64,000 nucleotides of DNA from an archaeon (GTDB lineage: Bacteria > Gemmatimonadota > Glassbacteria > GWA2-58-10): contig DATKXY010000046.1 in the NCBI GenBank assembly GCA_035528795.1, positions 2,499-66,498 on the forward strand, read 5' to 3'. The notes under the pieces were generated by a model. That model was not told the DNA's origin. It made no database searches and saw nothing but the letters and a program-made list of their open reading frames with translations. The position numbers and the translations under genes were made by a program. Shown one piece after another: positions 6,639-64,000 of the stretch (position 1 is its first letter; the number at the start of each line of letters is the position of its first letter).

Positions 6639-7664
6639 ATGACTGAGTTCAGACACGACCCGGTACATAGAAGATGGGTCATTGTACCACTAGACCGCAG
6701 ACGCGGTCCGGAAGATTTCGATGTTCCGATAAGAGTCCCGGACGAAGGGTTTTGCCCTTTTTGTGAGGGACAGGAGGCAAAAACTCCTCCCGAAATCTAT
6801 GCAGTGCGCCAGGGCAATCCCGACCGTCCAGGATGGAAAGTTCGAGTTTTTCCAAACAAATACCCGGCCATCTCCGGCGGCCCGGGTCCGGTAGAAAGAT
6901 GCGCTTACGGACTTTACGACTGGATCAATGGTGTAGGTTCCCACGAAATAGTGGTAGACCATCCCCAGCACCACATACTGTTCCACCAGATGGGCTCTGA
7001 CCACCTGGCATTCCTGGTTGATACTTACCGCAAACGCCTTGTAGAGCTGATGAAAGATCCGCGCTTTCGCTACATTATGGTTTTTAAAAACCACGGAACA
7101 AAAGCCGGCGCTTCGTTGAGCCATCAGCACACCCAGATAATAGCCATGCCGGTGATCCCACGCATTGCGGCAATGGCTCTGTCTACAGCCAGGGAACATT
7201 TCCATCACAAGGAACGCTGTCTATTCTGCGACATTCTGGTCCAGGAACTTTCCGATGGCCGCCGCATAGTGGCCCAGAACGAACATTTTGTCTGTTTTGT
7301 GCCCTACGCCTCGCGGTTCCCATTCGAGATGGCGATCTTTCCTAAAGATCATTACCATGATTTCGCCACCATCAAAGATGAGCTCCTGACACCTCTGGCT
7401 GAGATTCTCACTCAAGCGATCGGCAGGCTGGCAGCTATTTTCGGCGACCCGCCGTTCAACATTACAATCCACACAGGACCCAATACTAATCAAAGCTCCA
7501 GACGCGCCAACTACTGGGGAACTCTCAGCCACGACTGGCACTGGAACATTGAAATCATTCCCCGCCTGACCGCCCCGGCGGGTTTCGAATGGGGAACCGG
7601 CCTGTATATCAACAACACGCCCCCTGAGGACGGGGCGCACTTTTTGCGCGAGGTAAAACTTTGA
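6639..7664 (+). CDS. galT: galactose-1-phosphate uridylyltransferase-type HIT enzyme (GalT-like nucleotidyl-hexose phosphate transferase/phosphorylase)
   Basis: N-terminal Zn site CPFCEG; HIT-type HxHxQ (SHQHTQIIAMP); 341 aa; embedded in glycogen genes. Confidence 0.75.
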   Translation: MTEFRHDPVHRRWVIVPLDRRRGPEDFDVPIRVPDEGFCPFCEGQEAKTPPEIYAVRQGNPDRPGWKVRVFPNKYPAISGGPGPVERCAYGLYDWINGVGSHEIVVDHPQHHILFHQMGSDHLAFLVDTYRKRLVELMKDPRFRYIMVFKNHGTKAGASLSHQHTQIIAMPVIPRIAAMALSTAREHFHHKERCLFCDILVQELSDGRRIVAQNEHFVCFVPYASRFPFEMAIFPKDHYHDFATIKDELLTPLAEILTQAIGRLAAIFGDPPFNITIHTGPNTNQSSRRANYWGTLSHDWHWNIEIIPRLTAPAGFEWGTGLYINNTPPEDGAHFLREVKL

Positions 7665-7842
7665 CTGTATTGTCCAGGTGGAAAAAATCGTTCTTGAACG
7701 CGGTTGTGTACTCTTTTAAAATCTTGACTGGCAAATGAGATAAGCGAAATCACTGTTCAGCGAAACGGCTTTTTCGCGGTTTGTCTTGTAAAATCTCCGG
7801 TTTGATAAGATCCGGTGTAAACACGATCCAAGGAGAGTTGAT

Positions 7843-9564
7843 TTGCTTAAAGGCTATTTTTCTTTCGTGCTGCACTCGCACCTGCCCTACGTTATCTCGC
7901 ACGGTCAGTGGCCCCATGGGATGGATTGGCTCAACGAGGCTGCAGCAGAGACTTACCTGCCGATGATCGAGATGTTCGAAAAGGTAGGCAATGGCGCTCA
8001 TGGCCGTATAGGAGTCACTATCGGAATCACCCCGATCCTGGCTGAACAATTGGCTGACAATCGCTTTAAAGATTCCTTTGTCCAATACCTGGAGAACAAA
8101 ATTGCCGCTGCGACTGAGAACCGCGTCGAGTTCGAGCGGGTGGGTGATGGGCATAAGGCGTATCTTGCAGGGCTCTGGCGGGATTATTATCAGGAGGTGA
8201 AAAACCGCTTCATCGATCGGCTGGGTGGAGACATAATCGGGACCTTGCGCAAACTTCAGGATGAAGAAAAAATTGAGATTATCACCAGTGCTGCGACTCA
8301 CGGCTACCTGCCTCTGCTGGCCCGGGATGAATGTATCAGAGCCCAGCTTGTTCAAGGAGTGGTGACCTATCGCCGTCATTTTGGCAGGGATCCTGTGGGC
8401 ACCTGGCTGCCGGAATGCGCCTACAGACCGTCCTATGACTGGGTGAGCCCCCTGGCCGATGAGGGGTATGGGCCAGTGAAACCCGTGCGGCGCAAGGGGA
8501 TCGAACAGCTTGTATCAGAAGCCGGTATCAAATACTTTATCATTGATTCGCACCTGCTTAAAGGCGGCAGAGCGATCGGGGTTTATATCGACCGTTTCGA
8601 GGCCTTACAAAGGCTCTGGAAGCAGTTCGAAGACTCTTACGAACCCCGTCCGGAAGACCAGGAGCGCACGCCTTATCTGCCCTATCTGGTAGGCGATATA
8701 AGCCATCATGATCCGGTGGCCTTTTTTACCCGGGACCCTAAAACAGGACTCCAGGTCTGGAGCGGGGAATGGGGGTATCCGGGGGATGGGTCGTATCTCG
8801 ATTTCCACAAGAAACATTTCCCCGGGGGGCACCGCTACTGGCGTGTGACCAGCGCCAAGGCCGACCTGGCGGATAAACTGGTGTACGAGCCGCACCGGAT
8901 TGAAGAGATACTTGAAAACCAGAGCTCGCATTTTGTTTCACTTATCGAAACAGTAATAAACGAGAACAGCGCCGACAAGCGTACCCCGTGCATGATCACC
9001 GCCCCTTACGACACGGAGCTTTTCGGGCATTGGTGGTTCGAGGGTCCCCGCTGGCTGGGCAAGGTTCTCACAAAACTGGCCGCCTCAGAACTCGCCGGCC
9101 CTTCCTCCTGCGGGCTCTTTCTCGAACAAGTAAAACCCCGCGCCGTGGTGAGCCTTCCGGAAGGAAGCTGGGGCGAGGGGGGGTTCCATTATATCTGGCT
9201 CAATGACTGGACCAAATGGACCTGGCGCCATGTGTACGAGGCCGAGGACAAGATGTGTGAGGTGGCGGGCAAGCTACACGAGAAGAGCAAAGAAGACCTC
9301 TATCGGGTGGCCTGCCAACTGGGTCGCGAGCTCTTGCTGCTTGAGAGCTCGGACTGGCAATTTCTGATCAGCACCTGGTCGGCGCGCGATTACGCCGAAG
9401 CCCGGGTCGCGCGGCACTGGGAAAATTTCAGCCGCCTTTATCAGATGTTCAATCACCTGTCATCGGAGGGCACAGCCCCCGAGGTCGACTGGCGTTTTCT
9501 CGAACTTTGCGAGGAGAACGATCGGATCTTTACTGATCTTAAACCCTCATTATGGCTACCGTAA
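7843..9564 (+). CDS. GH57-family 1,4-alpha-glucan branching enzyme
   Basis: FVLHSHLPYV, WLPECAY and DTELFGHWW motifs typical of GH57 branching enzymes; TTG start 7 nt after AGGAG (7831-7835). Confidence 0.8.
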   Translation: MLKGYFSFVLHSHLPYVISHGQWPHGMDWLNEAAAETYLPMIEMFEKVGNGAHGRIGVTIGITPILAEQLADNRFKDSFVQYLENKIAAATENRVEFERVGDGHKAYLAGLWRDYYQEVKNRFIDRLGGDIIGTLRKLQDEEKIEIITSAATHGYLPLLARDECIRAQLVQGVVTYRRHFGRDPVGTWLPECAYRPSYDWVSPLADEGYGPVKPVRRKGIEQLVSEAGIKYFIIDSHLLKGGRAIGVYIDRFEALQRLWKQFEDSYEPRPEDQERTPYLPYLVGDISHHDPVAFFTRDPKTGLQVWSGEWGYPGDGSYLDFHKKHFPGGHRYWRVTSAKADLADKLVYEPHRIEEILENQSSHFVSLIETVINENSADKRTPCMITAPYDTELFGHWWFEGPRWLGKVLTKLAASELAGPSSCGLFLEQVKPRAVVSLPEGSWGEGGFHYIWLNDWTKWTWRHVYEAEDKMCEVAGKLHEKSKEDLYRVACQLGRELLLLESSDWQFLISTWSARDYAEARVARHWENFSRLYQMFNHLSSEGTAPEVDWRFLELCEENDRIFTDLKPSLWLP

Positions 9565-12440
9565 ATAGAAATACAAAGCCCCTGCTCAATCTAGTCCTCC
9601 AGACAAGCACAGAGGCTTTCCTTCTGCTTGACTCTCAGGGAACTATTCTGGGACTGAGCCGGCCGCTTGCCGAATGCCTGGGATACGCCCCGGAGGAACT
9701 CGCCGGCAAGCCTTTTCACGTGCTGGCGCCGGAAGATCTTAATCCGCCGCCCCTTGATCCGCCCCCTGAAGGCGAAAGGGAATTTACTATCTTAAACGGC
9801 TCAGGGGAAAATATTCCCACGCGCTGGCTGATTGTTTCAATGGACATCCAGGCCCAGGAAAGCGGGAAAAAATATCTGGCGGCCTATCTCAAGAAGATTG
9901 TCAGTCAGCATGAAGCAGGCTATGAACCCTATATCGATAATACACTCTGCAGCCACATTTATGACAACCTGCCGGTAGGTTTACTGGTCACCGATCTCCA
10001 GGGACGGATCGTTCTCTACAATCGAACCCAGGAGAATATAACCGGCATCTTGCGAAAGGATGCCCTGGGCGGTGTGCTGTTCAAGGATTACGCCGCTCAG
10101 GCCCCACAAGAAGCGATAGCCTCTTTTGAACAAGCTCTGCATCAAAAGGTTGAGAGCAGCGAGCACGAGTTCGACTATACCGACCGTTTCGGCAACACTC
10201 GCCGTTTTAAGACCTGTATCAGTTCGCTTCTCGGTCCTGATGACAAGATTCATGGTGTGATCCAGACCCTTGAGGATGTGAGCCGGCCCCGCCTGCTCGA
10301 ACAGGAAATAAACCGGACCAAGGACTTACTCAAGAGACTGCTTGATAGCACTCCGAACACCATTATCACCAGCGACCCCACAGGTAAAGTAACTTTTTAT
10401 AACCGCGCCGCAGATTCCCTACTTGGCCTGGACAGTCTCGAGGAGATCCGCATCGGGCAGCTTTTTATCGGTGGAGAACGGGAAGCCAAGCAAGTGATGG
10501 CGTATCTTGAGGAACGCTCTGGAACTATCGAAAACTACGAAACCTACTTTTTGGACGCGCAGGGCAACGAGGTGCCGGTAAGCCTGACCCTGTCGTTTAT
10601 CTACGATGAGGAGGCCAAGCCTGCAGGAACCGTCTCCATTGTGCGTAACCTGAGCCTGGAGAAAAAGCTGGAAAGCGAGTTCCGGAAGAATGAGCACTAT
10701 CTGGCTGTTTTCATCCAGAACAGCCCGGACGCTGTTATTACCCTCGATGAGAGCTGGCGGGTGCTGACCTGGAATCAGGGGGCTGAGAAAATTTTCGGTT
10801 ACACCTGCCAGGAAATGGTGGGGGAGAACCTGAACCGGCTGATTACCACAGATGCGCCCTCTCATGTAATAAGTGGCATGAACCATTTGCGCACTTTTCG
10901 GGATGGAGAGCTGAAACATTACATTACCGAGCTTGTAAACTCGCAAGGACAAAAGCTGGTGGTCGAGGCTACTTCCACAGTGATCAAAGAGCAGGACGGC
11001 AGGCTGACCGGCAGGCTGCTTATCTTCCGTGATGTCAGCGAGCGGGCGCGGCTTGAGAAGAGCCTGCAGGAGCACATCTCCGACCTTTACGTAATCAATG
11101 AAATCAGCGAGGCGCTTCTTACCCCCATGGACCTGAATGAAATCCTGGGGATCATTCTTATCGGAGTTACCGCTGCCCAGGGACTGGGGTTCAACCGGGC
11201 ATTCCTGTTGTTGTACGACCACCAGGAGGAAGCTCTGATGGGTAAACTCGCTATCGGGCCTTCCAACGCGGAAGAGGCCGGTATTATCTGGACCGAACTC
11301 AACCGGAAACATCAGACTCTCAGTGACCTTCTCCAGGCTTACAAACACAGTATCCGCGACCAGAATATCTATGTCAATGAAATCGTCTCCAAAATCAAAA
11401 TCCCGCTCTCTGAGGCGGATAATCCTCTGGTACGCTGTTTCAGAGAGAAAAGATCGCTCAATGTGGCCAGTGGAGTTGCTGCCGGCCAGTTCCCCCGGTC
11501 CCTGGCCGAGCTTTTAGGCACGGAGACCATGGCCATTATGCCCATGGTCTGCGAAGACAGGAGTGTGGGTCTGCTCCTGGCTGACAATCTGATCAACCGC
11601 AAACCCATCGAGGATGAATCGATCCGCAAGCTCAGGGTTTTCGCCAACCTGGCCAGCCAGACTATCGAGAGAAGCCGCCTGTATCTGAGCCTGGAAGAAA
11701 AGATCGACGATCTGGACAAGGCTTACCAGGAGCTAAAGGAAAGCCGGGATAAGCTGGTTCGGGCCGAAAGGCTTTCTGCAGTGGGCGAGGTTGCCGCCCA
11801 TGTGGCCCATGAAATTAGAAACCCTCTGGTTTGTATCGGTGGATTCGCCCGCTCTCTGTTCAAGGAGCTCAAAGAAAAAGACCCAATAAGAAACAAAGTG
11901 CAGATTATCCTTGATGAAGTCGAGCGGCTGGAGCGCTACCTAAAGGACACATTGACTTTCATCCGGCCTTATGTGCCGGAATTTCACCCGACCGATCCCA
12001 CTGTTCTGGTGCATGAGACTTTCCAGATGTTGGACAGTGAAATCGATGGAAGCAAAGTGGAAATCGATCTGGCCTTGATGGAAAACCCGCCGCAGATAGA
12101 GATTGATCCGGACCAGATCCGGCAGGTGCTGTTGAATATTTTCCGCAATGCGCTTGAAGCCATGCCGGGTGGTGGGCGGCTGACTGTGTCCTCGAATTCC
12201 AAAAACGGCTTTTTCACTATCAGCGTGGCAGACACCGGAATGGGCATCGATAAACAGAACATGGAAAACCTTTTTACCGCCTTTTTTACTACCAAAACTA
12301 CGGGAAGCGGACTTGGTCTCACTATCTCGAGCCAGATTATCAATAACCACGGAGGCACAATCGGTTTATCGAGCGAACGAGGCGTAGGAACCGTTTTCCA
12401 TATCACCCTTCCGATCAAACAGGCCGCTGCCAAGGAGTAA
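9552..12440 (+). CDS. multi-PAS/GAF sensor histidine kinase
   Basis: 962 aa; repeated PAS-like modules, GAF-like region, H-box AHVAHEIRNPL, N/G boxes (NIFRNALEAM, DTGMGID, GSGLGLTIS). Confidence 0.85.
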   Translation: MATVNRNTKPLLNLVLQTSTEAFLLLDSQGTILGLSRPLAECLGYAPEELAGKPFHVLAPEDLNPPPLDPPPEGEREFTILNGSGENIPTRWLIVSMDIQAQESGKKYLAAYLKKIVSQHEAGYEPYIDNTLCSHIYDNLPVGLLVTDLQGRIVLYNRTQENITGILRKDALGGVLFKDYAAQAPQEAIASFEQALHQKVESSEHEFDYTDRFGNTRRFKTCISSLLGPDDKIHGVIQTLEDVSRPRLLEQEINRTKDLLKRLLDSTPNTIITSDPTGKVTFYNRAADSLLGLDSLEEIRIGQLFIGGEREAKQVMAYLEERSGTIENYETYFLDAQGNEVPVSLTLSFIYDEEAKPAGTVSIVRNLSLEKKLESEFRKNEHYLAVFIQNSPDAVITLDESWRVLTWNQGAEKIFGYTCQEMVGENLNRLITTDAPSHVISGMNHLRTFRDGELKHYITELVNSQGQKLVVEATSTVIKEQDGRLTGRLLIFRDVSERARLEKSLQEHISDLYVINEISEALLTPMDLNEILGIILIGVTAAQGLGFNRAFLLLYDHQEEALMGKLAIGPSNAEEAGIIWTELNRKHQTLSDLLQAYKHSIRDQNIYVNEIVSKIKIPLSEADNPLVRCFREKRSLNVASGVAAGQFPRSLAELLGTETMAIMPMVCEDRSVGLLLADNLINRKPIEDESIRKLRVFANLASQTIERSRLYLSLEEKIDDLDKAYQELKESRDKLVRAERLSAVGEVAAHVAHEIRNPLVCIGGFARSLFKELKEKDPIRNKVQIILDEVERLERYLKDTLTFIRPYVPEFHPTDPTVLVHETFQMLDSEIDGSKVEIDLALMENPPQIEIDPDQIRQVLLNIFRNALEAMPGGGRLTVSSNSKNGFFTISVADTGMGIDKQNMENLFTAFFTTKTTGSGLGLTISSQIINNHGGTIGLSSERGVGTVFHITLPIKQAAAKE

Positions 12441-25873: not shown

Positions 25874-27049
25874 TTAAAAAGTAAACTTATTAAGATTAAA
25901 GCACTCTTCACAATTAGTCAATATACAACTATTACCAGAACCTGGTAGATAATGTAATCCTTTTCTATCAATTTTATATACGAAAGAATCTGCGCATACA
26001 CCCTGTAATATATTTATTGACGTATGTTTTTCGGCTTTTATAGAATCTAGAAATAATTCTTCCTGTGCTGATAACAAGAAAGGATTTATTTGCTGAGGTG
26101 ATTTTAACTTGTCTTGGCAATATGCCGAAACATTTGTACAAGCAATACAACAATTTTCAAAATGATTTTGGAAAAATTTAAGCGTGTCTTCACTTGGATG
26201 TTTAGGGTTGTTTGCAGGACAACTTATAGCAGCAAGAAAAGGCCTATAGACAGCAATAATTTTTTCCAAACAGGTTTTAAGGCCTATTTGATAAGCCCCG
26301 TGATGGGATACCTTAAAAAAACATAGTGTATTTAATATTGATTTATTTGTTATACTTAAGCATCGATTTGTAACATTACGCCAATTACGCTGGCCCACAA
26401 GATCTCCAGTGAATAAGAACAAATATTCTATTGAATCGACGTAATATCTAAAAATAAAAACATGGCACAGTGAATTAAACGATTCCCCAGAATCACCTGA
26501 TTTTTTTATTGCAGACCTTAATATAGCCAATGAATCTATTGCATTTGGGGATAATGCCACAAAATCGAGTTTTTTATGTAGATGATCTCGCCATGCAGAT
26601 GGTTTTGTATTTCCTTCAAAATTCATTGTCAATATAGTTGGAATACCATCTGCTTTGTTTTTAACATTTATATTTTTTAACTTATTTAATGATTCTAGTA
26701 TTGATTTTCTTAATGTTTTAAGTGTATCAGGATATAGATATTCTAATACAAAAAACCAATCTCCCGGATCGCCTGGTAAATTCGGAATGACAATATTATC
26801 TATAGTACAATCTTCATTTTCAAGATAATTTGCTAAATCAGGAAGGCCAGATATATGATCATAGTGAAGGTGGGTAATAAAGAGTGTATTTAAGTGCGTT
26901 ATTTTGTTTTTTTTTAAAAATTCTATAGAAGGTACAGATTCACCAATTTTTTTGCAATCAATAAGTGAATAATAACATCCTGAATTATCTTGGGTTTTTA
27001 TTACAACAGAATCTCCCAAGCCTACATTCAATACTATTATTTCAAGCAT
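25874..27049 (-). CDS. metallo-beta-lactamase-fold hydrolase with Cys-rich C-terminal region
   Basis: HxHxDH motif THLHYDHISG; downstream His/Asp ligands; C-terminal 130 aa with about 9 Cys. Confidence 0.65.
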   Translation of the reverse strand: MLEIIVLNVGLGDSVVIKTQDNSGCYYSLIDCKKIGESVPSIEFLKKNKITHLNTLFITHLHYDHISGLPDLANYLENEDCTIDNIVIPNLPGDPGDWFFVLEYLYPDTLKTLRKSILESLNKLKNINVKNKADGIPTILTMNFEGNTKPSAWRDHLHKKLDFVALSPNAIDSLAILRSAIKKSGDSGESFNSLCHVFIFRYYVDSIEYLFLFTGDLVGQRNWRNVTNRCLSITNKSILNTLCFFKVSHHGAYQIGLKTCLEKIIAVYRPFLAAISCPANNPKHPSEDTLKFFQNHFENCCIACTNVSAYCQDKLKSPQQINPFLLSAQEELFLDSIKAEKHTSINILQGVCADSFVYKIDRKGLHYLPGSGNSCILTNCEECFNLNKFTF

Positions 27050-27057
27050 CTTTTCTC

Positions 27058-27645
27058 TTATTTTAAAAATTCTTTAATTAATTTTTGCTCTTCTTCATCC
27101 AAGTGCCCTTGTTTGAAAGGTTTTAAATATAACTTTTTAGAAGATCCTATTTGACGAACTTCAATGTCGATTCTTGAGTAGAGTTTTACAGGAAAAGGGA
27201 TACTGGTTAATGGTTTTTTGATTTGATATTGTTTTCCTTCGACAGAAACATCAATTATTGCTTTTACTGGGTCTCCAGATAAATTCTCCTCAAGTCCAAC
27301 AACCAATGCCGGGTATAAACCAATTACTTCGTCGAGTTGAGCAAGGAGCTCTTTAAGATCATCAGCAACAGTTTTGGCTTTTGGACTTACAATATTAATT
27401 GGATAAACTTGACTAACAAGAGATTTTTGTTCTAATACATCAAATATATCATCACCTCGTACGCTTGCTGTATAAGTTCCAATAGTCATACTGGCTATAG
27501 CAGCACCAGCTGTCCAATCAATTAGTTTTACTCTAAGGTTTTCCAATTTATGTGGTTCTCTATCTGGTATGTTCTCTACTGCGTTTATTTTTTTTTCTTT
27601 CAAGTCTAAATGAGTTTCAGTTAAATCCATTGTATTAATCCTCAT
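27058..27645 (-). CDS. hypothetical protein (island operon, middle gene)
   Basis: 195-aa ORF, 4-nt overlap with upstream gene; no recognised motif. Confidence 0.45.
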   Translation of the reverse strand: MRINTMDLTETHLDLKEKKINAVENIPDREPHKLENLRVKLIDWTAGAAIASMTIGTYTASVRGDDIFDVLEQKSLVSQVYPINIVSPKAKTVADDLKELLAQLDEVIGLYPALVVGLEENLSGDPVKAIIDVSVEGKQYQIKKPLTSIPFPVKLYSRIDIEVRQIGSSKKLYLKPFKQGHLDEEEQKLIKEFLK

Positions 27646-28472
27646 TCGAATTTTATAAAATCTGAAATATTAATAATATTAGAAATTTCAAGAGCCAATT
27701 TATCTATTACAAAATCTGTTCCACCCATTTCTTCTAACGTAGAAGCTTTACTTGGAATAAGTTGATAATCAAACATTGCTCCAGCAATAAAGGCTTTTTC
27801 ATCTTTATGGTTGTCTGGATCGATTAATTTAAAAATAAAGCATATTTCATTGTTTTCTTTATCCTTAGGAAAATAATATCTGTTTTGTGCTATTTTTTCG
27901 GAATTTTTTGCCTGAATATTGCCAGGAAAGGTCGCTTGTTTTCTAAATTTCTCAAGAATCGTCCATTTAACTTCATTTAAAGGAATATAATAATATTCTA
28001 CAAGACCGATAAATCTTGCAGCAGGCAGTCCTTGTGGTAAAAGTCGTTCTATCAATTTTAAAGTAGAAGAGAAATTTTTTAAAGTATCTTTTCTAAAATC
28101 CTTTTTTTCAAAATCCCTTAACTCAGCCTCCCTTATTTTATCATCTAGAAAAATAAATGGAATTAATTTGTTTTCAAATTTATTATCACCATCACTTTCA
28201 TTGTCTGAATCAGGTAAAAGTTTAAATAATGGTTTACTTATTGCCAGTATAGTATTTATAATTAAAAAATTATACGTAAATGTTATTAATATATTTCTTA
28301 TTTTTATTTGCAATTCATTCTTTTTAATAGATATTTTTAAATTTTTGTCATTTGCATCTAAAAATGCATCGGCAATATCGCTAAAAGAATTAGTAACAGT
28401 TAGCCTAGCTTTTTCAAAATGATACCCAAACAACATTGCCACTAAGCAGTCTTTTTTTTCAATCACAGCCAT
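27642..28472 (-). CDS. hypothetical protein with internal hydrophobic helix (island operon, first gene)
   Basis: 276-aa ORF; hydrophobic segment ILITFTYNFLIINTILAI; no recognised family. Confidence 0.45.
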   Translation of the reverse strand: MAVIEKKDCLVAMLFGYHFEKARLTVTNSFSDIADAFLDANDKNLKISIKKNELQIKIRNILITFTYNFLIINTILAISKPLFKLLPDSDNESDGDNKFENKLIPFIFLDDKIREAELRDFEKKDFRKDTLKNFSSTLKLIERLLPQGLPAARFIGLVEYYYIPLNEVKWTILEKFRKQATFPGNIQAKNSEKIAQNRYYFPKDKENNEICFIFKLIDPDNHKDEKAFIAGAMFDYQLIPSKASTLEEMGGTDFVIDKLALEISNIINISDFIKFE

Positions 28473-40977: not shown

Positions 40978-41144
40978 GCCTTTTACTCTAGCCCCGGAGT
41001 ATTCAAAGGGCATTATTCTGAAGATCAAATATGCATTTTAAGATTGAATATGGGATGCAGGCCATTAGAATTAAACTTACTTATTTACGTAATTCCGGCG
41101 GAAATAATACGAGGTAACCACCATTGGTCAAAATCATTACTGTA

Positions 41145-42002
41145 CTAATCTCGAAAATAGTTTGGAGGAACAGCTTTAAAGTCTGTTTTCCTGCCTGGAT
41201 TTGTTTGCGCTAAATGCAGTGACTCTATAGGAAGATGGAATGTCTGTACCGCAAGTTGATTTTTTCCTTCGTGTCTATAAATAGTTCTTTCATGTGCTAT
41301 ACGATAAGGTGAAATTGCAACGGAGCCACCGTAATAACCTGTATTGCAAACAACAACGTTAGAATAAACCGTTCGTGATAGTGATTCTGCGATATGGTAA
41401 AAAGAGTTAATATCCTTGTTATATGCCAAAACAAATAAATGATGTAGCTTCCCCTTATATATTAAGTGCCGCTCAATATCCATAAAGTCGTAGCATATAC
41501 AAACACCAAAATCGCCATAGTTACGAGTATTAAATACCCAATGCGTTTTGTTTTTATTATAACTCCATCCAATATTTTTTATATGACTTTTTTCCGTAGG
41601 AGCAAGATAAGTTTTATTTAAAAAGAAAAACTTTGCATATCCACTTTTACTGCGACTTGGCCAATAAGGAGGAACAATAATCACCCCCTCATTAGCTACC
41701 GTCTTGGCTCTATAATCTAAATTGTAATCTATACCGCATATTACTATTGATCCAACTTGTACTACTATTTTGCCCAATAAATTTAAATATCCTCTTGGCA
41801 CTGCTAATTCCGGAAATATTATGATGTGTGGTTTTTGATAAGCGTAATAAAGAGTTCTCATTACATATCTTATTTCAGACCATGCAATTTTTTGCTCGGA
41901 AGCTTGCATTTGCGGAGGACTATTATTTTTCCAAGCTGCAATTCGATCTACTGTAGTTTCTCCAACACCTACTATTAGTATTTCTTCGTAAAATGAAGAC
42001 AT
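41145..42002 (-). CDS. nitrilase-superfamily (CN-hydrolase) protein, stand-alone
   Basis: catalytic triad context: IIIFPELAVP (Glu), FFLNKTYLAP (Lys), GVCICYD (Cys); 285 aa; starts 2 nt after RT stop. Confidence 0.75.
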   Translation of the reverse strand: MSSFYEEILIVGVGETTVDRIAAWKNNSPPQMQASEQKIAWSEIRYVMRTLYYAYQKPHIIIFPELAVPRGYLNLLGKIVVQVGSIVICGIDYNLDYRAKTVANEGVIIVPPYWPSRSKSGYAKFFFLNKTYLAPTEKSHIKNIGWSYNKNKTHWVFNTRNYGDFGVCICYDFMDIERHLIYKGKLHHLFVLAYNKDINSFYHIAESLSRTVYSNVVVCNTGYYGGSVAISPYRIAHERTIYRHEGKNQLAVQTFHLPIESLHLAQTNPGRKTDFKAVPPNYFRD

Positions 42003-42004
42003 AC

Positions 42005-45000
42005 TTATTCTTCTTCCTCATCATTTATTATGCTTGGCTTTGTCAATAATTCTAATTTTACGGGTATTAGTTGCACAGGTTCACCATTTTTGACCGTAAG
42101 CTGATATTTTTCTAAATGTTGACGTGAATTTTTTACTCTAAGGTAAAACTCATCGACTGCTACAATTGGTTCGGGATCGTCAAGAGAATCGTCTTCGCCA
42201 TAATGGGTCAACATATTCAATTGTTTTAGCATTGCTGTTTCTCGAGCCCTAGATGTCAGCGAGCCTAATAGCAACGAAGTAGTATTAGAGGAGCAGCGGA
42301 CGTCGTTTAATAATGTAAAAGGGAAACGTTGTTGAGATCTCCAATTACCTGGAGGATTCCATTTTTCAGGCCAAATAAATGACCGTCTTAAAAGAGCTAA
42401 CAATAAAAGAGCAGGCCCTCGAATGTGACTATATTCTGCACCTTCCTGATTTATCCAAGATGAATATCGAGGATCTTCAATTAAATCATCTATTCTATTT
42501 TGCAAGATAGGGGTATTGGATTCTATATGACTCCTCCAAGCATCCCAAGTTAAAGGGTATTTTTGAGTTATCCAGTTTCTAGGAATAAAAAAGTTTCCTG
42601 GGTGGTATGGTACTTCTGTATCCCTAGCAACGTTTTTAAAACTTAGCAATAATTTTCCAATTTCTTCTATTATTTTTAATGCTGTCCATTCTGATAATCG
42701 CAGGTCGGATGGGTATTTTTTGTTTTGTTCATTCAACCATTTGGTCCATTGAAACAAATCAATTTTTGATCTGTAATTCATCGTTCGCAATTGACTTTTT
42801 ACAAAATTTTTATCTGCATTCTCATCTGAATTTTGATACCAATCGTACAACCATCCTTTTCCTTGAGCCAATGCAAAACGTTTGAATTGACTTTTTTTAA
42901 TTCTTTTTGACAGATTTGATATCTTTAAATCGTATGGATATTTTGCAATAGTGGGCCAAACTTCCTTATTTTTTAGATTTGCATAATTGACATATTTGTG
43001 CCAAATCAATCCCGCTTGCTCACCTAATTTATAATTAATTTTCTTCTCTGCCAGCCATACCCAAATGGATATATCGTATCCACTTATATGCGACCAATCC
43101 TGATGATTGCTATCCCAGGTAAATGCATTAATTCTTTGACCAAATTCTTCTAAAGATTTTATTGATTCCCGGATCTTGCTTTTGTGGGTTATCTTTTCTA
43201 TAGAAGTTTTGCATACCTCATTTAATACTTCTATAGCAGAGCCAGTTATAAATTTCAAATTACAATATGAGGCATTAAAAAAAGCTTTGGCTTCACTACT
43301 ACTCCCAAATTGCAAAGAACAATTTTCCAGCGAGTTTAGAAATTGGCATCTTGCTGCAACTGCATCTGGCGATATATCATTTTTACAAATATCGTTTATT
43401 GCTTTTGCAATTTGATCAGAAAGAATCTGATAAACTACCGCTCGCAAATATTCTAAAGCATATTTATTGGTGTCTTTTCGCTTTTCATTCGCAAGCAATT
43501 CAATAATCGACTTTATGCCTTGGTATCCAGACAACCTGCAAAATTGTATTGCGAATAGCCATAGGCGTATTTTATCTGGGTAATCATTTATCGCTCTGAT
43601 GAGTATCTCGTGTATAAAAGCTTCTTCACCTTCTAATCTTTTTTTTAAACTAGCTCTTTCATTTTTTAGATCACTATTTTTTTTTAACAATTTTTTATTT
43701 AACTCTTCTAATTCATTCTCATTCTCATCTCTACTAATAAATTCATTTCGGTATTTATTCATGGAGCTTTCTATTTTATCCTTTGATGCTTCTATATTGG
43801 CTTTTTCCCTTTCCGTATAATTTATTTCTGCTTCTTTCTGTTGAATATGTTCTGGATACAAGTAACTCAAACGCGATGCGGCAAAAGTCATTCTAGTATC
43901 TCGCCTTATTTCAGCATCTGGGAAATCAGCCATCATCAAGTGTTTTAAATCCTCGATGAAATGAGATTGCTCTTCGAAGTCCAAAAGATCAAAAGGTGTG
44001 AGAGCAAGGTTAGATATTTGCGCTAAGGTAGGCGTTGTCAATGGCACGGGAAATCTTGGATCATATTTTGTAGCTTGCTTCGCATCACTTTCTAAATCTT
44101 TTTTATCTTCCTTTTTTATCTTCGAAGATAGATATCTTCCTAACTCCTTCGGCTGAGTTTTATCAATGTTGAAATCGATGGTCTCGATTTTTTCCCTTAA
44201 TAATTCGCGGTAGGCAATTATCCAATTCGTTAATTCTTCAAATGAATTACTCAAAAATATATGGTCATCTACAAATCTGAAATGTGCAATAGACCTGTTA
44301 TTTTTTAGTAAATCACTAACAATATGATCAACTTCCAATAGAGCCAAATTTGCAAGAAATCCAGCCACAAATAGACCCGTTGGAATTCCTTTGAATAATT
44401 TTTGTTTTTTTGAAAATTCAAGTTTCTCTATTTCATCTTCATTTAAATTCGAAAAATCCAAATTAAATGTGAGTAAATTATTTAATAGCTCCCTACCCTC
44501 CCTGGCGAGAGTAGAATAGTTAAGTATATTTTTTTCAATGATATTTATATTACAGCTTGGATAGAACTTTGATAAATCTATTCCTCCCCAATGCCATTTA
44601 CCCGTTTTTAAAGTTGATTGCCAATATCCCTTTTTCAAATAAGGAAGCTTATGTTCTTCGGTTAAATATTTTTCACTTTCTAATATCCGATTCTCCGCTT
44701 CATCGAAAGGGATATCTTCAATAGACGCCATTTTTTTTATTGTTAGATTGATATGACGTCTATAAAGTGGCCAACTGTGCTTAAATTTCCTGTAAAGATT
44801 TTTCGTCGTATGCCTGTATGGGCCAATTTTCAGTCGATCTTTTACATCGGAGATAGAGTCTTTCCACGCTGTCCTATATAACCTATGCCCGTAACTCCAA
44901 GGCATCATTTTATTGTCTAACTCTGGTCCAACAATATTTATATACGCAATCCATACGACTTGATCGCGCACATCTATATCGAAATACTGCCTTAGTCTAG

Positions 45001-45295
45001 TTTGCCCATTTTCATCTTTTCTTTTTGGATGAACTAATGGTCTTAGCGGCGACATATCATATTTACCAGCGCTAAATTGCTCTTCTATTATGCTAAGCTC
45101 TCTGTCCAAATGTTTCTCGAAATCAGCAACAGCTGCTTCGTTAAACCATGCGTCTCCAATACGATATAGAAAATACGTTTTTTCCCAAGCCCACAGCAAA
45201 TTTTCTGGTAAAGTTAATCTTTTAATCAGCTTACTTTGTGGCATTATGTCGTCTCTTTTTGGATCGGAGGTATTCCTCCAAATCTTGTCCCTCAT
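42005..45295 (-). CDS. large reverse transcriptase with about 750-aa alpha-helical C-terminal extension (UG/Abi-like defence-associated RT candidate)
   Basis: RT motifs 1/2 (PLRPLVHPKRKDENGQTRLRQYFDIDVRDQV), A (GGIDLSKFYPS), B (GIPTGLFVAGFLANLAL), C (FRFVDDHIF; FVDD encoded at 44264-44275); ORF-track start is TTG 45307, first ATG 45293 or 45244. Confidence 0.85.
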   Translation of the reverse strand: MRDKIWRNTSDPKRDDIMPQSKLIKRLTLPENLLWAWEKTYFLYRIGDAWFNEAAVADFEKHLDRELSIIEEQFSAGKYDMSPLRPLVHPKRKDENGQTRLRQYFDIDVRDQVVWIAYINIVGPELDNKMMPWSYGHRLYRTAWKDSISDVKDRLKIGPYRHTTKNLYRKFKHSWPLYRRHINLTIKKMASIEDIPFDEAENRILESEKYLTEEHKLPYLKKGYWQSTLKTGKWHWGGIDLSKFYPSCNINIIEKNILNYSTLAREGRELLNNLLTFNLDFSNLNEDEIEKLEFSKKQKLFKGIPTGLFVAGFLANLALLEVDHIVSDLLKNNRSIAHFRFVDDHIFLSNSFEELTNWIIAYRELLREKIETIDFNIDKTQPKELGRYLSSKIKKEDKKDLESDAKQATKYDPRFPVPLTTPTLAQISNLALTPFDLLDFEEQSHFIEDLKHLMMADFPDAEIRRDTRMTFAASRLSYLYPEHIQQKEAEINYTEREKANIEASKDKIESSMNKYRNEFISRDENENELEELNKKLLKKNSDLKNERASLKKRLEGEEAFIHEILIRAINDYPDKIRLWLFAIQFCRLSGYQGIKSIIELLANEKRKDTNKYALEYLRAVVYQILSDQIAKAINDICKNDISPDAVAARCQFLNSLENCSLQFGSSSEAKAFFNASYCNLKFITGSAIEVLNEVCKTSIEKITHKSKIRESIKSLEEFGQRINAFTWDSNHQDWSHISGYDISIWVWLAEKKINYKLGEQAGLIWHKYVNYANLKNKEVWPTIAKYPYDLKISNLSKRIKKSQFKRFALAQGKGWLYDWYQNSDENADKNFVKSQLRTMNYRSKIDLFQWTKWLNEQNKKYPSDLRLSEWTALKIIEEIGKLLLSFKNVARDTEVPYHPGNFFIPRNWITQKYPLTWDAWRSHIESNTPILQNRIDDLIEDPRYSSWINQEGAEYSHIRGPALLLLALLRRSFIWPEKWNPPGNWRSQQRFPFTLLNDVRCSSNTTSLLLGSLTSRARETAMLKQLNMLTHYGEDDSLDDPEPIVAVDEFYLRVKNSRQHLEKYQLTVKNGEPVQLIPVKLELLTKPSIINDEEEE

Positions 45296-46295
45296 TAAGT
45301 TTTGCAACTCTTACAATTTTCCCACCCTTTGAAAAAAGAGTTGTTAATTTTGAAGCTCCTTTTTTACCCGCTTCATCCATATCAAATACTATTATTATGT
45401 TGTAATCAGCAAATAAAGAAATCCAACTATCTCTAAAAGATCCTACACCTAATATTCCAACTGCATTGTATCCATTGCCTATAGCAGCTAAAGTATCGGG
45501 TACACCTTCAAGTATTAAAACCTTGCTTCTAATTTTTATTTTTTTTAGCACTTCAGAATTATACATAGGCTTGCTTAATCCTGATAAGTTTATATATTTA
45601 GGACCTTTAGTGTGGTTAAATCGCCTGCCCTGTATATAAACAACTTTTTCTTGGTACAAAAAGGGAAATAGAATACTACGGTCCCACCATACTAAAGTAG
45701 CCTTATTATCTTTTTTCTTAGCAATGCCACAATTGAGGAGACGTTTCACTCCATAAAGTGTAATTAATTTTGCCCAAGTTTCTTTGGGTGCTTCCAACTC
45801 ACCAATTCTTGCATTTTTTATCAATTCCGCAGAAAAGCCCCTTTTTTCTAAGTAATCAGTACCTTTCTTTGTGATTGGACATAACTCAAGTAGTTTCTCA
45901 TATATATCATTATCGCTTCCCTTTGGGTAAAATGCACTTTGGATGTCGTATGTTTCCGTCCTGTAAAAAAGTTTTTTTTGTTGGACATTACTCCCTTTTA
46001 CTGCTTTTCTCTTAAGCTTACTACTATCCATGTTATAACTACACATCAACCATTCAACAGCCTCATTGAAGCCGATATTCAGCACTTTTGCAACCAAATC
46101 GATATTTGATCCGCCCTCATTGCATCCAAAACATTTCCAAGTATTTGTATCTTCCTTAATTGAAAAGCTTGGGATTTTATCTTCATGTGTTCCCAATGGA
46201 CATCTGGACTTATTATTTTTAACGCATATCCCTAAAAGCTTTGCCACATCTATAATTGGAATACCTTTTATCTGATCTAGTTTCATTTTAACCAA
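45231..46295 (-). CDS. DnaG-like primase: zf-CHC2 zinc finger plus TOPRIM domain
   Basis: CPLGTHEDKIPSFSIKEDTNTWKCFGCNEGGSNIDLV (zf-CHC2); TOPRIM Glu (VLILEGVPD) and DxDxAG (VFDMDEAGKKG); 3'-end overlaps RT start. Confidence 0.75.
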   Translation of the reverse strand: MVKMKLDQIKGIPIIDVAKLLGICVKNNKSRCPLGTHEDKIPSFSIKEDTNTWKCFGCNEGGSNIDLVAKVLNIGFNEAVEWLMCSYNMDSSKLKRKAVKGSNVQQKKLFYRTETYDIQSAFYPKGSDNDIYEKLLELCPITKKGTDYLEKRGFSAELIKNARIGELEAPKETWAKLITLYGVKRLLNCGIAKKKDNKATLVWWDRSILFPFLYQEKVVYIQGRRFNHTKGPKYINLSGLSKPMYNSEVLKKIKIRSKVLILEGVPDTLAAIGNGYNAVGILGVGSFRDSWISLFADYNIIIVFDMDEAGKKGASKLTTLFSKGGKIVRVAKLNEGQDLEEYLRSKKRRHNATK

Positions 46296-46454
46296 CTATC
46301 GGAGTACTATTAATATAATTTATCTCGCGAACCATCGATTTATTCGATCATTTATACTATAGATATTAACAATAAGAAAACTCTTGATAATCTTTAAACG
46401 AATTATTATATTAATATATATTAGTAATCATTATCTTTTAATACGGAGGCAATA

Positions 46455-47093
46455 ATGATAATAAACAACGCACAAGCCGAGAAGCCGAGGACCGTAGCCT
46501 ATCTAAGAGTATCAATCATAGACCAGGATGTTGCGAAGAATAAAAGAGACATTCTATATTTTACGAACTAAAGAGATTTTGGCAAGGTTTTTTTTCATGA
46601 AGAGAAAGTAAGTGGCGGGAAAACGTGGCGAGAAAGAAAGCTAAAAGCGATAATTGAAGATCTTTGTGAGGGAGATCGTCAGATTGTCCCTTAATTTTCA
46701 CGACTTGTCAGATCGATGCTTGAGATAATGTAAATTCTCTCTATAGCTAAAGAAAAGGGAATTTCTATTTATGCCGTGAAAGGCAACTAGACACTCAACA
46801 GTTCGATAGAATCATAAATTATCAGGATGGTTTTTGCCATGGCCGCAGAAATCGAACGAGACTTGATTAGCCAGAGAACCAAGGAGGCCTTTAGAGCGAG
46901 AAAAGCTGCTGGTGTTAGATTAAGCCGACCGAAGGGGCCGGGTAAATCAAAACTCGATAAATATCGGGAAAAGATAATCACTCTGTTGAAAATTGGCTCC
47001 ATCAAAACTTTTGGAGTTATTATGGCTCGTGCAAAATCGTCCTCTTCAAGCTTTTGTAATAAATGGCGGCCAGATTTATGCGCCTGGAGGTGA
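46455..47093 (+). pseudogene. degraded serine recombinase (resolvase/invertase) gene
   Basis: three reading frames carry consecutive resolvase segments: VAYLRVSIIDQD (catalytic Ser region), ...RLVRSMLEIM*ILSIAKEKGISIYAVKG..., ...MVFAMAAEIERDLISQRTKEAFRARKAAGVRLSRPKG; interrupted by stops and frameshifts. Confidence 0.6.
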
Positions 47094-47628
47094 AAGTATA
47101 CCAAAACTTTAAGTTGGTCCTCAAAATTCATTTGCAACGGCCGGTTTCCTCTGGCCTCAAGTTCAGGAAGTTGTGATATGGTTTCTGATGCCGACTTGAA
47201 AACCTTAGTGAATGATTTAGGGATAAGTTTTATAAATTTTCTTGCAAGGCCTTGGCGTTTTCGTAACTCCTTTAATTTTAAATACTTATACGATATTTGC
47301 TGTTAGACCTTTTATTGAATTTTCAAGGAAAAAATTACCTCAATTTATTGTGACGTAAAAAATTGAAGAAATTTGCTCCACCTGCAATTTCCTAACTTGC
47401 ATTACTGTGAATTAGGGGGATTTAATAATCTGTTACCGGTTTTAAAAAAGGCCCTATTTCTGCAGTCAAATCAGTATTAGTCTCAGCCGGCACCAGTAAA
47501 AAGAGTTTACTGCCAGCTCGGGTGAGCAATCGACTGTTGATTGAAAGGAGAATCTAGATTAAAATTCTTTTGAGACTTGTCTTATAACAGCTATAAACCT
47601 GATTAAAAAATTTAGCCTGGCCGTTATC

Positions 47629-62937: not shown

Positions 62938-63137
62938 GATTCGAAATATAAAATTCAAAAACAATATTACAGTAATACATTTCCGCTAGCCTAGGCTTTA
63001 ATAATTTAATAAAGCGTTTTTCAAAAAAAAGTTTTTTGAATAGGGATTGGAAATATTCTCCTTGTTGGTAGTTTTAGAAAAAAGAGCCCACTTTATTTTG
63101 GACAGCAGTGATTGAAAATATCAAATCGGAGGAAAAA

Positions 63138-63800
63138 ATGAAAAAAACGACTTTGTTAATTCTATTCCTATCCTTAGCATTTGTTGATAATATCCAGGCA
63201 AAGAAAATAGGAGATTTTAACGGAGATGGAGATATAAATATCCTTGATGCAATATCTTTTATAAGAATAATTGTAAATCAAGTACCAGATAGCATTGTCG
63301 GACAAGAGTACATTGTCTTGAACGGTGAAGGGCTGAAAATTGGAACTTTTGATGGCTATGAAAGAATAAGGTGCTATTCAGATGGAAATCTGGCGGTTGA
63401 TATATATGCTACCTCCGCTTTAGGAACGGTAAGATTAATATCAAAAGCTTTAGAAACTTATGAAACTACATATGAATGGAGACACACAGGATATTTTTCA
63501 AGGCCATACGGTAGTGCTTGTCTGATAATTCCGAAAGATTCAATTCTACCAAATATTATTACTTGGCAAGTTGGAGATGCTGCACCTGTTTGGGATAATA
63601 CCAACAAAAAGTTTAAAGTATATGTTTCAGGCGATACTACTTATACATTTTCGCCTGATACTGAAATAAATGCACCCAATTTGTCAGGATTGGTTTGTAG
63701 AAATGATTTTGATTCATTGGTAGCCAGAGTTAATGCTATTAGTGCTCTTTTAGGTGCAGATGTGAATAAATTAAAAGCAGATTCTGGAATGAACCCTTAA
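63138..63800 (+). CDS. secreted protein with dockerin-like Ca-binding repeat
   Basis: signal peptide; GDFNGDGDINILDAISFIR matches dockerin type-I repeat (DxNxDGxxNxxD); AT-rich gene. Confidence 0.5.
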   Translation: MKKTTLLILFLSLAFVDNIQAKKIGDFNGDGDINILDAISFIRIIVNQVPDSIVGQEYIVLNGEGLKIGTFDGYERIRCYSDGNLAVDIYATSALGTVRLISKALETYETTYEWRHTGYFSRPYGSACLIIPKDSILPNIITWQVGDAAPVWDNTNKKFKVYVSGDTTYTFSPDTEINAPNLSGLVCRNDFDSLVARVNAISALLGADVNKLKADSGMNP

Positions 63801-64000
63801 ATCTGGACAAAGGCCAAAGAAAATAAGTACATTGCCAGAAGGAGCCAATAAAGGAGGTTCCTTTATTGTAATCAAACAGACTTTTCCCTGCTCGATAGCA
63901 GCACTGTTGCTCTGATTCTGATTCTGTTTTTCAACTGATATTTTTGCTGCAGGTTTATTTGACCAGCGTCCGTTTAAACCACTCAATTTCCTTCTTCCGT

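Follow-up and report, generated by a model that had tools for sequence, protein, structure and literature searches.

An AT-rich cassette of three genes, found in a 64,000-nucleotide stretch of DNA from an uncultured Glassbacteria-like bacterium (NCBI GenBank assembly GCA_035528795.1, contig DATKXY010000046.1, positions 2,499 to 66,498 of the forward strand; the whole stretch is called the window throughout), encodes a DnaG-type primase, a reverse transcriptase (RT) and a stand-alone nitrilase. There can be hardly any doubt that this cassette belongs to UG6, a Class 3 UG/Abi RT system, and its best explanation as a whole, with a probability of about 0.7, is that of a UG6 RT-primase-nitrilase anti-phage system, a role against phages being in itself quite probable. 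The three co-directional genes are tightly packed on the minus strand and all of their open reading frames (ORFs) are intact:

45231..46295, minus strand: DnaG-type primase, 354 aa from TTG, or 351 aa from the ATG at 46286 (the public gene call)
42005..45307, minus strand: UG6 reverse transcriptase, 1100 aa from TTG, or 1079 aa from Met22 at 45244
41145..42002, minus strand: separate nitrilase (C-N hydrolase) from the DRT-associated clade, 285 aa, with the tetrad E65, K130, E137 and C170 (C170 codon at 41493-41495)

The start of the RT gene overlaps the 3' end of the primase gene by 77 nt when counted from the TTG at 45307, or by 14 nt from Met22 (45244), whereas the nitrilase ATG (42000-42002) begins 2 nt past the RT stop codon (42005-42007). 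Packing, overlap and spacing had already been noticed in a first-pass annotation made from the sequence letters, and are confirmed by the ORFs. The trio is a set of three translationally coupled genes, the minimal three-gene form of the system. As for the RT start, Met22 is likely the true one, since an identical 1079-aa protein has been deposited (NCBI/ENA) and residues 1-22 are disordered in the structural model.

The PADLOC-DB v2 library holds dedicated models for the three proteins, and profile searches, which the first-pass annotation had suggested, match each of them to its own model: RT_UG6 for the RT (5.7e-200, 665 bits, model positions 2-916 of 925), RTasDnaG-like for the primase (1.6e-88) and RTasNitrilase for the nitrilase (7.9e-97). 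The next DRT group on the RT is Drt1a, with 40.8 bits (1.6e-11) and a match that covers only aa 243-524. Mestre et al. 2022 (PMC9226505) describe UG6 as a Class 3 group with a C-N hydrolase (cluster 285) and a DnaG-type primase (cluster 192) encoded as separate coding sequences, and with an RT C-terminal domain remotely similar to kinases; as cited in that work, UG6 corresponds to 'family E' of Kojima and Kanehisa 2008, and its description is repeated in papers of 2021 and 2026. Every testable UG6 feature is matched in the window, namely the profile, an RT of more than 1000 aa, a kinase-like C-terminus, an upstream primase, a downstream C-N hydrolase and a tight operon. The gene combination, which the first-pass annotation could not recognise among described DRT/UG types, is a catalogued UG6 architecture and not a new type of system, and it looked unfamiliar because general libraries such as Pfam and NCBIfam are poorly informative here as compared to PADLOC. 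The same annotation had placed the RT among Class 1 UG/Abi enzymes, but HEAT-like alpha-repeats define Class 1 (AbiK, AbiA, Abi-P2), whereas UG1/DRT1, UG5 and UG6 belong to Class 3 (PMC9226505).

The architecture is also widely conserved. An alignment of 33 RT sequences (A1) was used to retrieve 80 UG6 loci from contigs of one genome per species, in which the partner genes were positioned by tblastn with the primase and nitrilase of the window, counting only those loci with room for the partner in question. Directly downstream of the RT, and in the same direction, 76 of 77 loci have the nitrilase, and 70 of 78 have the primase directly upstream; the genes most often join by a 4-nt overlap. The conservation of both neighbours, on which the first-pass annotation had made its proposal depend, is thus well established. 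These loci are spread over Acidobacteriota, Bacteroidota, Alpha-, Beta- and Gammaproteobacteria, Verrucomicrobiota, Bacillota, Campylobacterota, Elusimicrobia, Gemmatimonadota, Ignavibacteria and a lineage of the Candidate Phyla Radiation. The window cassette is a divergent member of the family: its RT has at least 399 database relatives, the nearest of those listed, leaving aside the deposited copy of the protein itself, being 36-38% identical, and it forms a 50% cluster of its own. No relatives of the RT were found among 72,556 plasmid records (PLSDB) or 50,697 phage records (INPHARED).

Some variations of this layout were observed. Eight of the 78 loci have no primase, with RT and nitrilase otherwise the same. 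Among them, the gene of a BrxHI-like DEAD helicase (PADLOC 6.9e-266) shares 4 nt with the RT start in L001 (5881-7986), an unannotated 365-aa protein occupies the primase position in L023 (6880-7977), and either Shedu SduA (L057:6545-7774) or AbiEi/AbiEii (L065:6248-7905) lies directly upstream. In an uncultured Proteiniphilum (L045, about 6978-11315), primase and UG6 RT form a single 1467-aa ORF, which looks like a candidate for a naturally fused intermediate linking UG6 with UG29. Directly after the nitrilase, L045, L067, L070, L074 and L075 (Bacteroidales, Prevotella) encode a conserved protein of about 210 aa that has no match in Pfam. Finally, in seven loci (L067, L069, L070, L072, L074, L075 and L078) the match of the RT to that of the window stops at about aa 640-680, and at least five of these loci have the nitrilase 1-2.4 kb further on, which suggests a UG6 sub-variant with a different RT C-terminal region.

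The RT itself can be divided into three parts:

44153..45223, minus strand: fingers and palm of the RT (roughly aa 29-385); motif A is D244, motif B PTGL 309-312 and motif C FVDD 345-348 (44264-44275)
43583..43903, minus strand: long coiled-coil hairpin (aa 469-575; AF2 helices 469-518 and 523-575), the most variable segment of the family
42008..43582, minus strand: C-terminal region particular to UG6 (aa 576-1100), made up of a helical domain and a protein-kinase-like fold, with an HPxNF motif (H902, N905)

The core RT motifs listed in the first-pass annotation are all borne out, with the codons of FVDD at the place given and the residues of motif A (D244), motif B (P309-T-G-L312) and motif C (F343, R344, V346, D347, D348 and H349) invariant in the alignment of 33 homologues. 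Pfam RVT_1 reaches 28.4 bits on this protein, just below threshold, and the best match of the RT profile in the PDB is the palm of DRT1 (9yfd, 3.9e-12), spanning motifs A-C. The AF2 model (pLDDT 84, pTM 0.89) shows an RT core, thumb helices, the long coiled-coil hairpin and a large C-terminal region. When the full model was compared by Foldseek with the PDB (to April 2026, DRT1 9yfd not included), only the RT core was matched, to group II intron RTs and to those of diversity-generating retroelements (DGRs), DRT2, DRT4, UG15 and DRT9, and no AbiK or Abi-P2 structures appeared among the top 50 matches. A weak Golgin_A5 coiled-coil match at the hairpin is regarded as spurious.

In the case of the C-terminal region, the best structural matches of the model are protein kinases. 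The family consensus conserves the HPxNF motif and lacks the HRD and DFG motifs, and no Pfam kinase match was obtained on the RT, which suggests that the fold is probably that of a pseudokinase. The first-pass annotation had described this part of the protein as an alpha-repeat extension to be modelled; the helices are indeed present (thumb, coiled-coil hairpin and helical domain), but the prediction gives a protein-kinase-like fold and no alpha-repeat. A search of the region against 1.84 billion cluster representatives matched 233 proteins and, among the matches listed, these are either shorter fragments or proteins of RT length (about 1000-1100 aa) whose C-terminal half is what matches; the region is peculiar to the UG6 family. 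The RT is also of ordinary length for the family (1079 aa vs a median of 1074).

Affiliation of this RT with group II introns, retrons, DGRs or CRISPR-associated RTs, any of which would have spoken against a UG/Abi enzyme in the first-pass annotation, was considered and rejected: the NCBIfam group_II_RT_mat profile gives 42 bits against a cut-off of 300, an Rfam scan of the whole window at gathering thresholds gives no matches (introns and retron msr/msd included), and there are no maturase, Avd or Cas genes among the neighbours.

The primase carries a CHC2 zinc finger (C32, H37, C55, C58), the DnaG catalytic core and a TOPRIM domain (E263, D267, D305, D307, D338), as detected by Pfam (Zn_ribbon_DnaG, DNAG_N and Toprim_2) together with a sub-threshold NCBIfam match to dnaG. 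It aligns end to end with Aquifex DnaG (2au3, 5e-13), ending before any helicase-binding domain, and its 354 aa leave no room for such a C-terminal domain, in agreement with the zinc finger, TOPRIM and missing helicase-interaction domain of the first-pass annotation. Ten residues (C32, H37, C55, C58, R224, E263, D267, D305, D307 and D338) do not vary among 70 homologues, of which 69 have K or R at position 233, and position 234 is always aromatic; the length (351 aa) is close to the family median of 350. An active primase is favoured over a bare nuclease for this TOPRIM protein, because of its invariant zinc finger, its basic/aromatic NTP motif and its acidic TOPRIM residues.

The nitrilase has no match in Pfam or NCBIfam at E <= 0.1, and in the PDB it significantly matches nothing but the DRT1 nitrilase domain (9yfd_A 1012-1206, 4.9e-14), with C170 aligned to C1116. 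The catalytic triad pointed out in the first-pass annotation is present as E65, K130 and C170 and is completed by E137, the four residues being invariant in 76 homologues. Also invariant in these homologues are K276, P279 and P280, which lie 6-10 residues from the C-terminus and may correspond to the lid of DRT1. The 285 aa of the protein compare with a family median ORF length of 303, a median that includes start-codon over-extension. Since the catalytic residues are invariant, all three enzymes look active, both in the UG6 family and in the copy of the window.

On the surroundings of the family, the nearest ORF on either side of the trio in the 80 loci (146 ORFs) was scanned against PADLOC. 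A DEDD-type 3'-5' exonuclease adjoins the trio in 25 loci (about a third, ~32%), mostly just downstream and co-directional, and clustering separates an RNase_T-fold form of about 314 aa, found in 14 loci, from an SbcB/ExoI-like form of about 467 aa, found in 11 (examples are L014:12076-12984 of Paracoccus denitrificans DSM 413, L029:12104-13501 and L017:447-1910). The main text of Mestre et al. 2022 (PMC9226505) does not bring up this exonuclease in connection with UG6; PADLOC contains a model named 'RTasSbcB', and the window has no DEDD exonuclease. Defence genes found among the nearest neighbours are BrxHI, DrmMI, type I and IIG restriction-modification, ThsB, Avs1b, PtuA, MzaC, Shedu SduA and AbiEi/Eii, and the flanks of UG6 also hold tyrosine integrases in 14 loci and serine recombinases in 8. 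The evidence for a defence-island and mobile context of UG6 is, in any case, circumstantial.

Among known systems, the closest solved relative of both the RT palm and the nitrilase is DRT1/UG1 of Klebsiella pneumoniae (PDB 9yfd, Neville et al. 2026), also a Class 3 member, as anticipated by the kinship to nitrilase-bearing DRT1/UG1 enzymes proposed in the first-pass annotation. DRT1 is a single polypeptide of RT, alpha-helical repeat domain and fused nitrilase, without primase or kinase-like domain, whereas the nitrilase of the window is, relative to DRT1, split off into its own 285-aa ORF, as that annotation had it. Protein-primed, template-independent synthesis has been shown biochemically for the Class 3 systems DRT1, DRT5S and DRT5L, and mutation of the DRT1 nitrilase residue C1116, which is required, abolishes defence (PMC13275509). 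The DNA adducts of DRT1 drive the assembly of a dormant nitrilase tetramer/filament whose C-terminal lid is swapped and contains an essential K1219, its trigger includes the phage single-stranded DNA (ssDNA) helicase Dda, and the outcome is abortive infection (Neville et al.). In vitro, these adducts are trimmed by ExoI to 17-30 nt. UG5-small/DRT5S, another Class 3 RT for which protein-primed, template-free synthesis has been shown, has its nitrilase in a separate ORF as here, but it lacks a primase and its nitrilase belongs to cluster 249 instead of the 285 of UG6; in UG5-large, RT and nitrilase are fused, and the RT_UG5-nitrilase model gives 29 bits on the window RT.

Two other systems combine an RT with a primase. 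UG29 unites DnaG-type primase, RT and C-N hydrolase in the order seen here, fused into about 2500 aa, whereas the window has three ORFs with intervening stops; a common mechanism for UG6 and UG29 was proposed by Mestre et al. (PMC9226505). The PADLOC RT_UG29 model matches the primase of the window (3.4e-26, model positions 12-366) and gives no match at E <= 0.1 on the RT and the nitrilase. DRT7/UG10, on the other hand, is the only characterised RT plus primase defence system, and can serve as a functional model for UG6. It differs from UG6 in being a Class 1 system with an archaeo-eukaryotic primase (AEP) fused to the RT, an alpha-repeat domain, no nitrilase and an apparently non-abortive outcome. 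Its AEP primase copies the protein-linked poly(dT) made by the RT into a complementary strand, and the DnaG-like primases of Class 3 were called unexplored in the same study (Figiel et al., bioRxiv 10.64898/2026.02.16.706125).

A pathway for UG6 can be proposed on the basis of these precedents. Primase, RT and nitrilase would form one complex, because the three are fused in UG29, primase and RT are fused in the Proteiniphilum locus, and both DRT1 and UG5-large join RT and nitrilase in one protein. Within this complex, the RT would make protein-primed, template-independent ssDNA, as do its Class 3 relatives DRT1, DRT5S and DRT5L; an ssDNA product is also suggested by the DEDD/SbcB-type exonuclease genes that 25 loci have beside the trio. 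The DnaG-type primase, which natively acts on ssDNA, would then copy the RT product into short complementary strands, in the manner of DRT7/UG10, although this specific role, drawn by analogy, is somewhat less than an even bet. The resulting nucleic acid would hold the nitrilase oligomer assembled yet dormant, until a phage factor of DNA metabolism releases it, whereupon an essential metabolite would be hydrolysed, leading to abortive infection. The kinase-like C-terminal domain of the RT would act as a non-catalytic scaffold or sensor, and the DEDD exonuclease, where present, would trim the ssDNA. The pathway requires no non-coding RNA (ncRNA), and none was found. A more elaborate version is tentative and rather doubtful: protein-linked, untemplated ssDNA would be copied by the DnaG primase into an RNA:DNA hybrid, the hybrid would be read by the pseudokinase-like domain and so gate the nitrilase toxin, and the DEDD exonuclease would tune the product in a third of the loci. 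If true, UG6 would work in a way that has so far been demonstrated for no Class 3 system and that converges on the AEP primase of DRT7, and it would be the first case in which a replicative-type DnaG primase is recruited to second-strand synthesis in immunity.

The cassette lies within an island of foreign composition, together with the remains of a recombinase:

41000..47620, no strand: AT-rich horizontally acquired segment, by composition, between the stop of the host pepA (40977) and the next host gene (47629)
46455..47000 (end approximate), plus strand: serine recombinase (resolvase) pseudogene, by single-frame translation (Pfam Resolvase 3.6e-23, 82.7 bits), with five in-frame stops

From about 41000 to 47620 (~6.6 kb), the island has a GC content of 0.29-0.44, compared with 0.55-0.61 on either side, with sharp edges, and the resolvase pseudogene is oriented divergently from the UG6 operon. 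The cassette is intact and horizontally acquired, in mobile AT-rich DNA, which agrees with the mobile accessory DNA and recombinase remnant of the first-pass annotation, and its foreign GC (about 0.35 vs 0.55) argues for a recent arrival. The gene order from a penicillin-binding protein (PBP) gene to pepA is common to the window and to one Glassbacteria-like relative (51-78% aa identity) and stops exactly at the island. Two Glassbacteria-like relatives are syntenic with the window up to pepA and continue with an SNF symporter or a Tricorn protease, both absent from the window, so that the island sits at a synteny breakpoint, although no exact empty site was recovered. No tRNA genes were found at the borders of the island, nor any convincing direct or inverted repeats bracketing it as att sites, only 14-30 nt matches at chance level. 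An ncRNA or template element beside the operon was also sought and rejected, in view of the missing Rfam matches and of the two intergenic flanks, whose folding is not better than that of shuffled sequence (z-scores +0.77 and +0.41). A terminator scan yielded 1 terminator-like site where 3.6 were expected, and is uninformative in DNA so rich in AT. On the minus strand, a short frame (47020-47320) whose sequence contains LKVLVYFHLQAHKSGRHLLQKLEEDDF overlaps the 3' part of the resolvase pseudogene from the opposite side. An N-terminal fragment of an IS4-type transposase, suspected from sequence resemblance at about 47020-47137 (minus strand), gave no Pfam match and was dropped.

Several points weigh against an anti-phage UG6 system with the proposed mechanism. 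No experimental test of UG6, either of phage defence or of biochemical activity, was found in the literature searched, and the defence-island signal of UG6 was rated 'inconclusive' by Mestre et al. 2022 (PMC9226505), while the neighbour count given above is based on crude ORF calls with no matched background. With regard to the precedents, other Class 3 RTs do not conserve the priming serine of DRT1 (S402, located past the palm in a disordered loop; PMC13275509), K276 is likened to K1219 of DRT1 by position alone and not by alignment, and the filament and domain-swap regulation of DRT1 may not transfer to UG6, which has a kinase-like domain and a separate nitrilase. The AEP primase of DRT7 is evolutionarily unrelated to DnaG, and the analogy is hence only functional. 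As for the copy in the window, it adjoins a dead recombinase and its expression may be doubtful; a promoter scan returned 20 promoter-like sites versus 23.4 expected, although AT-rich DNA makes such a scan uninformative.

Among the alternatives, the one that departs least from the proposed pathway changes only the priming step: the DnaG-type primase would lay a short RNA primer to be extended by the UG6 RT, replacing protein priming and leaving the nitrilase effector and abortive infection as they are. The lack of conservation of S402 among Class 3 RTs would fit this idea, as would the position of the primase gene, upstream of the RT and translationally coupled to it, and the invariance of all primase catalytic residues; the 8 of 78 loci without primase could have reverted to protein priming. 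Yet these loci retain the same RT and nitrilase, which implies that the RT presumably initiates alone. Moreover, DnaG primases require an ssDNA template, of which none is evident, with no conserved ncRNA or template element by the operon. The characterised UG/Abi RTs in the cited literature are either protein-primed or ncRNA-templated, and DRT7, the sole characterised RT plus primase system, uses its primase after the RT. Priming by the primase is, therefore, unlikely. A much smaller chance is left for a DRT1-like defence system of an undescribed kind with a novel gene combination, as the first reading had it. Pfam and NCBIfam alone do not name the trio, with RVT_1 sub-threshold and the nitrilase unmatched, and the public record calls the RT just 'RNA-directed DNA polymerase'; but the dedicated PADLOC models for the three proteins, the published description of UG6 and the same trio in 70 loci make this next to impossible.

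Two further readings set defence aside. DnaG-like primases are common in plasmids and phages. The primase, the RT and (elsewhere) the exonuclease could in that light be a non-immune replication or maintenance module of an integrative mobile element, with the nitrilase as cargo, a view with which the adjacent resolvase pseudogene, the integrases and serine recombinases flanking other loci and the inconclusive defence score of UG6 would agree. However, the nitrilase is the most constant partner of the RT (76/77), keeps an invariant tetrad and belongs to a DRT-specific clade whose DRT1 member is essential for defence. Furthermore, no other mobile-element genes are conserved with the trio, the plasmid and phage records hold no relatives of the RT, and many of the neighbours are bona fide defence genes, all of which renders a mobile-element module quite improbable. 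Just as little credit can be given to the cassette as a decaying passenger, that is, the inactive relic of an old insertion, which would explain the five in-frame stops of the adjacent resolvase, the absence of any remaining flanking repeats or att sites and that of a convincing promoter. Against such decay, the three ORFs are full length with respect to the family medians and retain every invariant residue, and the strongly foreign GC points to a recent arrival. The UG6 RT-primase-nitrilase anti-phage system is the preferred explanation of the cassette.

Regarding the host, the nearest named relatives of pepA are from Candidatus Glassbacteria (55-66% identity), and the class A PBP gene of the window has an orthologue in the locus of the relative (L082; Transgly plus Transpeptidase domains) with 75% aa identity. 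These two genes, together with the shared gene order, indicate that the host is a bacterium, Glassbacteria-like and uncultured, and that the label 'archaeon' of the NCBI metagenome-assembled genome is a loose one. The window contains other AT-rich DNA. A second foreign-looking island at about 25.8-28.6 kb (GC about 0.30) has three packed co-directional genes on the minus strand (25874-28472), two of which encode proteins of 276 and 195 aa with no Pfam or PADLOC match. The third encodes a 391-aa protein with a metallo-beta-lactamase fold (Lactamase_B 1.3e-6) and weak PADLOC matches to LmuA (8.7e-10, N-terminus only) and RTasMBL (1.9e-8). These genes (25874-28472) may form an uncatalogued accessory or defence cassette. 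A third AT-rich stretch (63000-64000, GC 0.35) lies at the end of the window and includes a 230-aa ORF on the plus strand (63108-63800), the product of which resembles a signal peptide at its N-terminus and matches dockerin weakly (0.003).

A last question concerns the meaning of this cassette for the family. UG6, UG29 and one UG24 variant are the nitrilase/phosphohydrolase RT systems with a DnaG-type primase, and no defence or biochemical study of them was found in the literature searched; the mechanism of UG6 is now directly testable thanks to the 2026 papers on DRT1 and DRT7. The comparison of loci offers several leads in this respect: the near-universal pairing of RT and nitrilase, the optional primase (90% of loci), the recurrent DEDD/SbcB exonuclease, the fusion of primase and RT, the catalytic residues that are invariant in the three enzymes and the equally invariant lysine near the nitrilase C-terminus. 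For its part, the copy described here extends UG6 to a Glassbacteria-like lineage and shows its recent horizontal acquisition.

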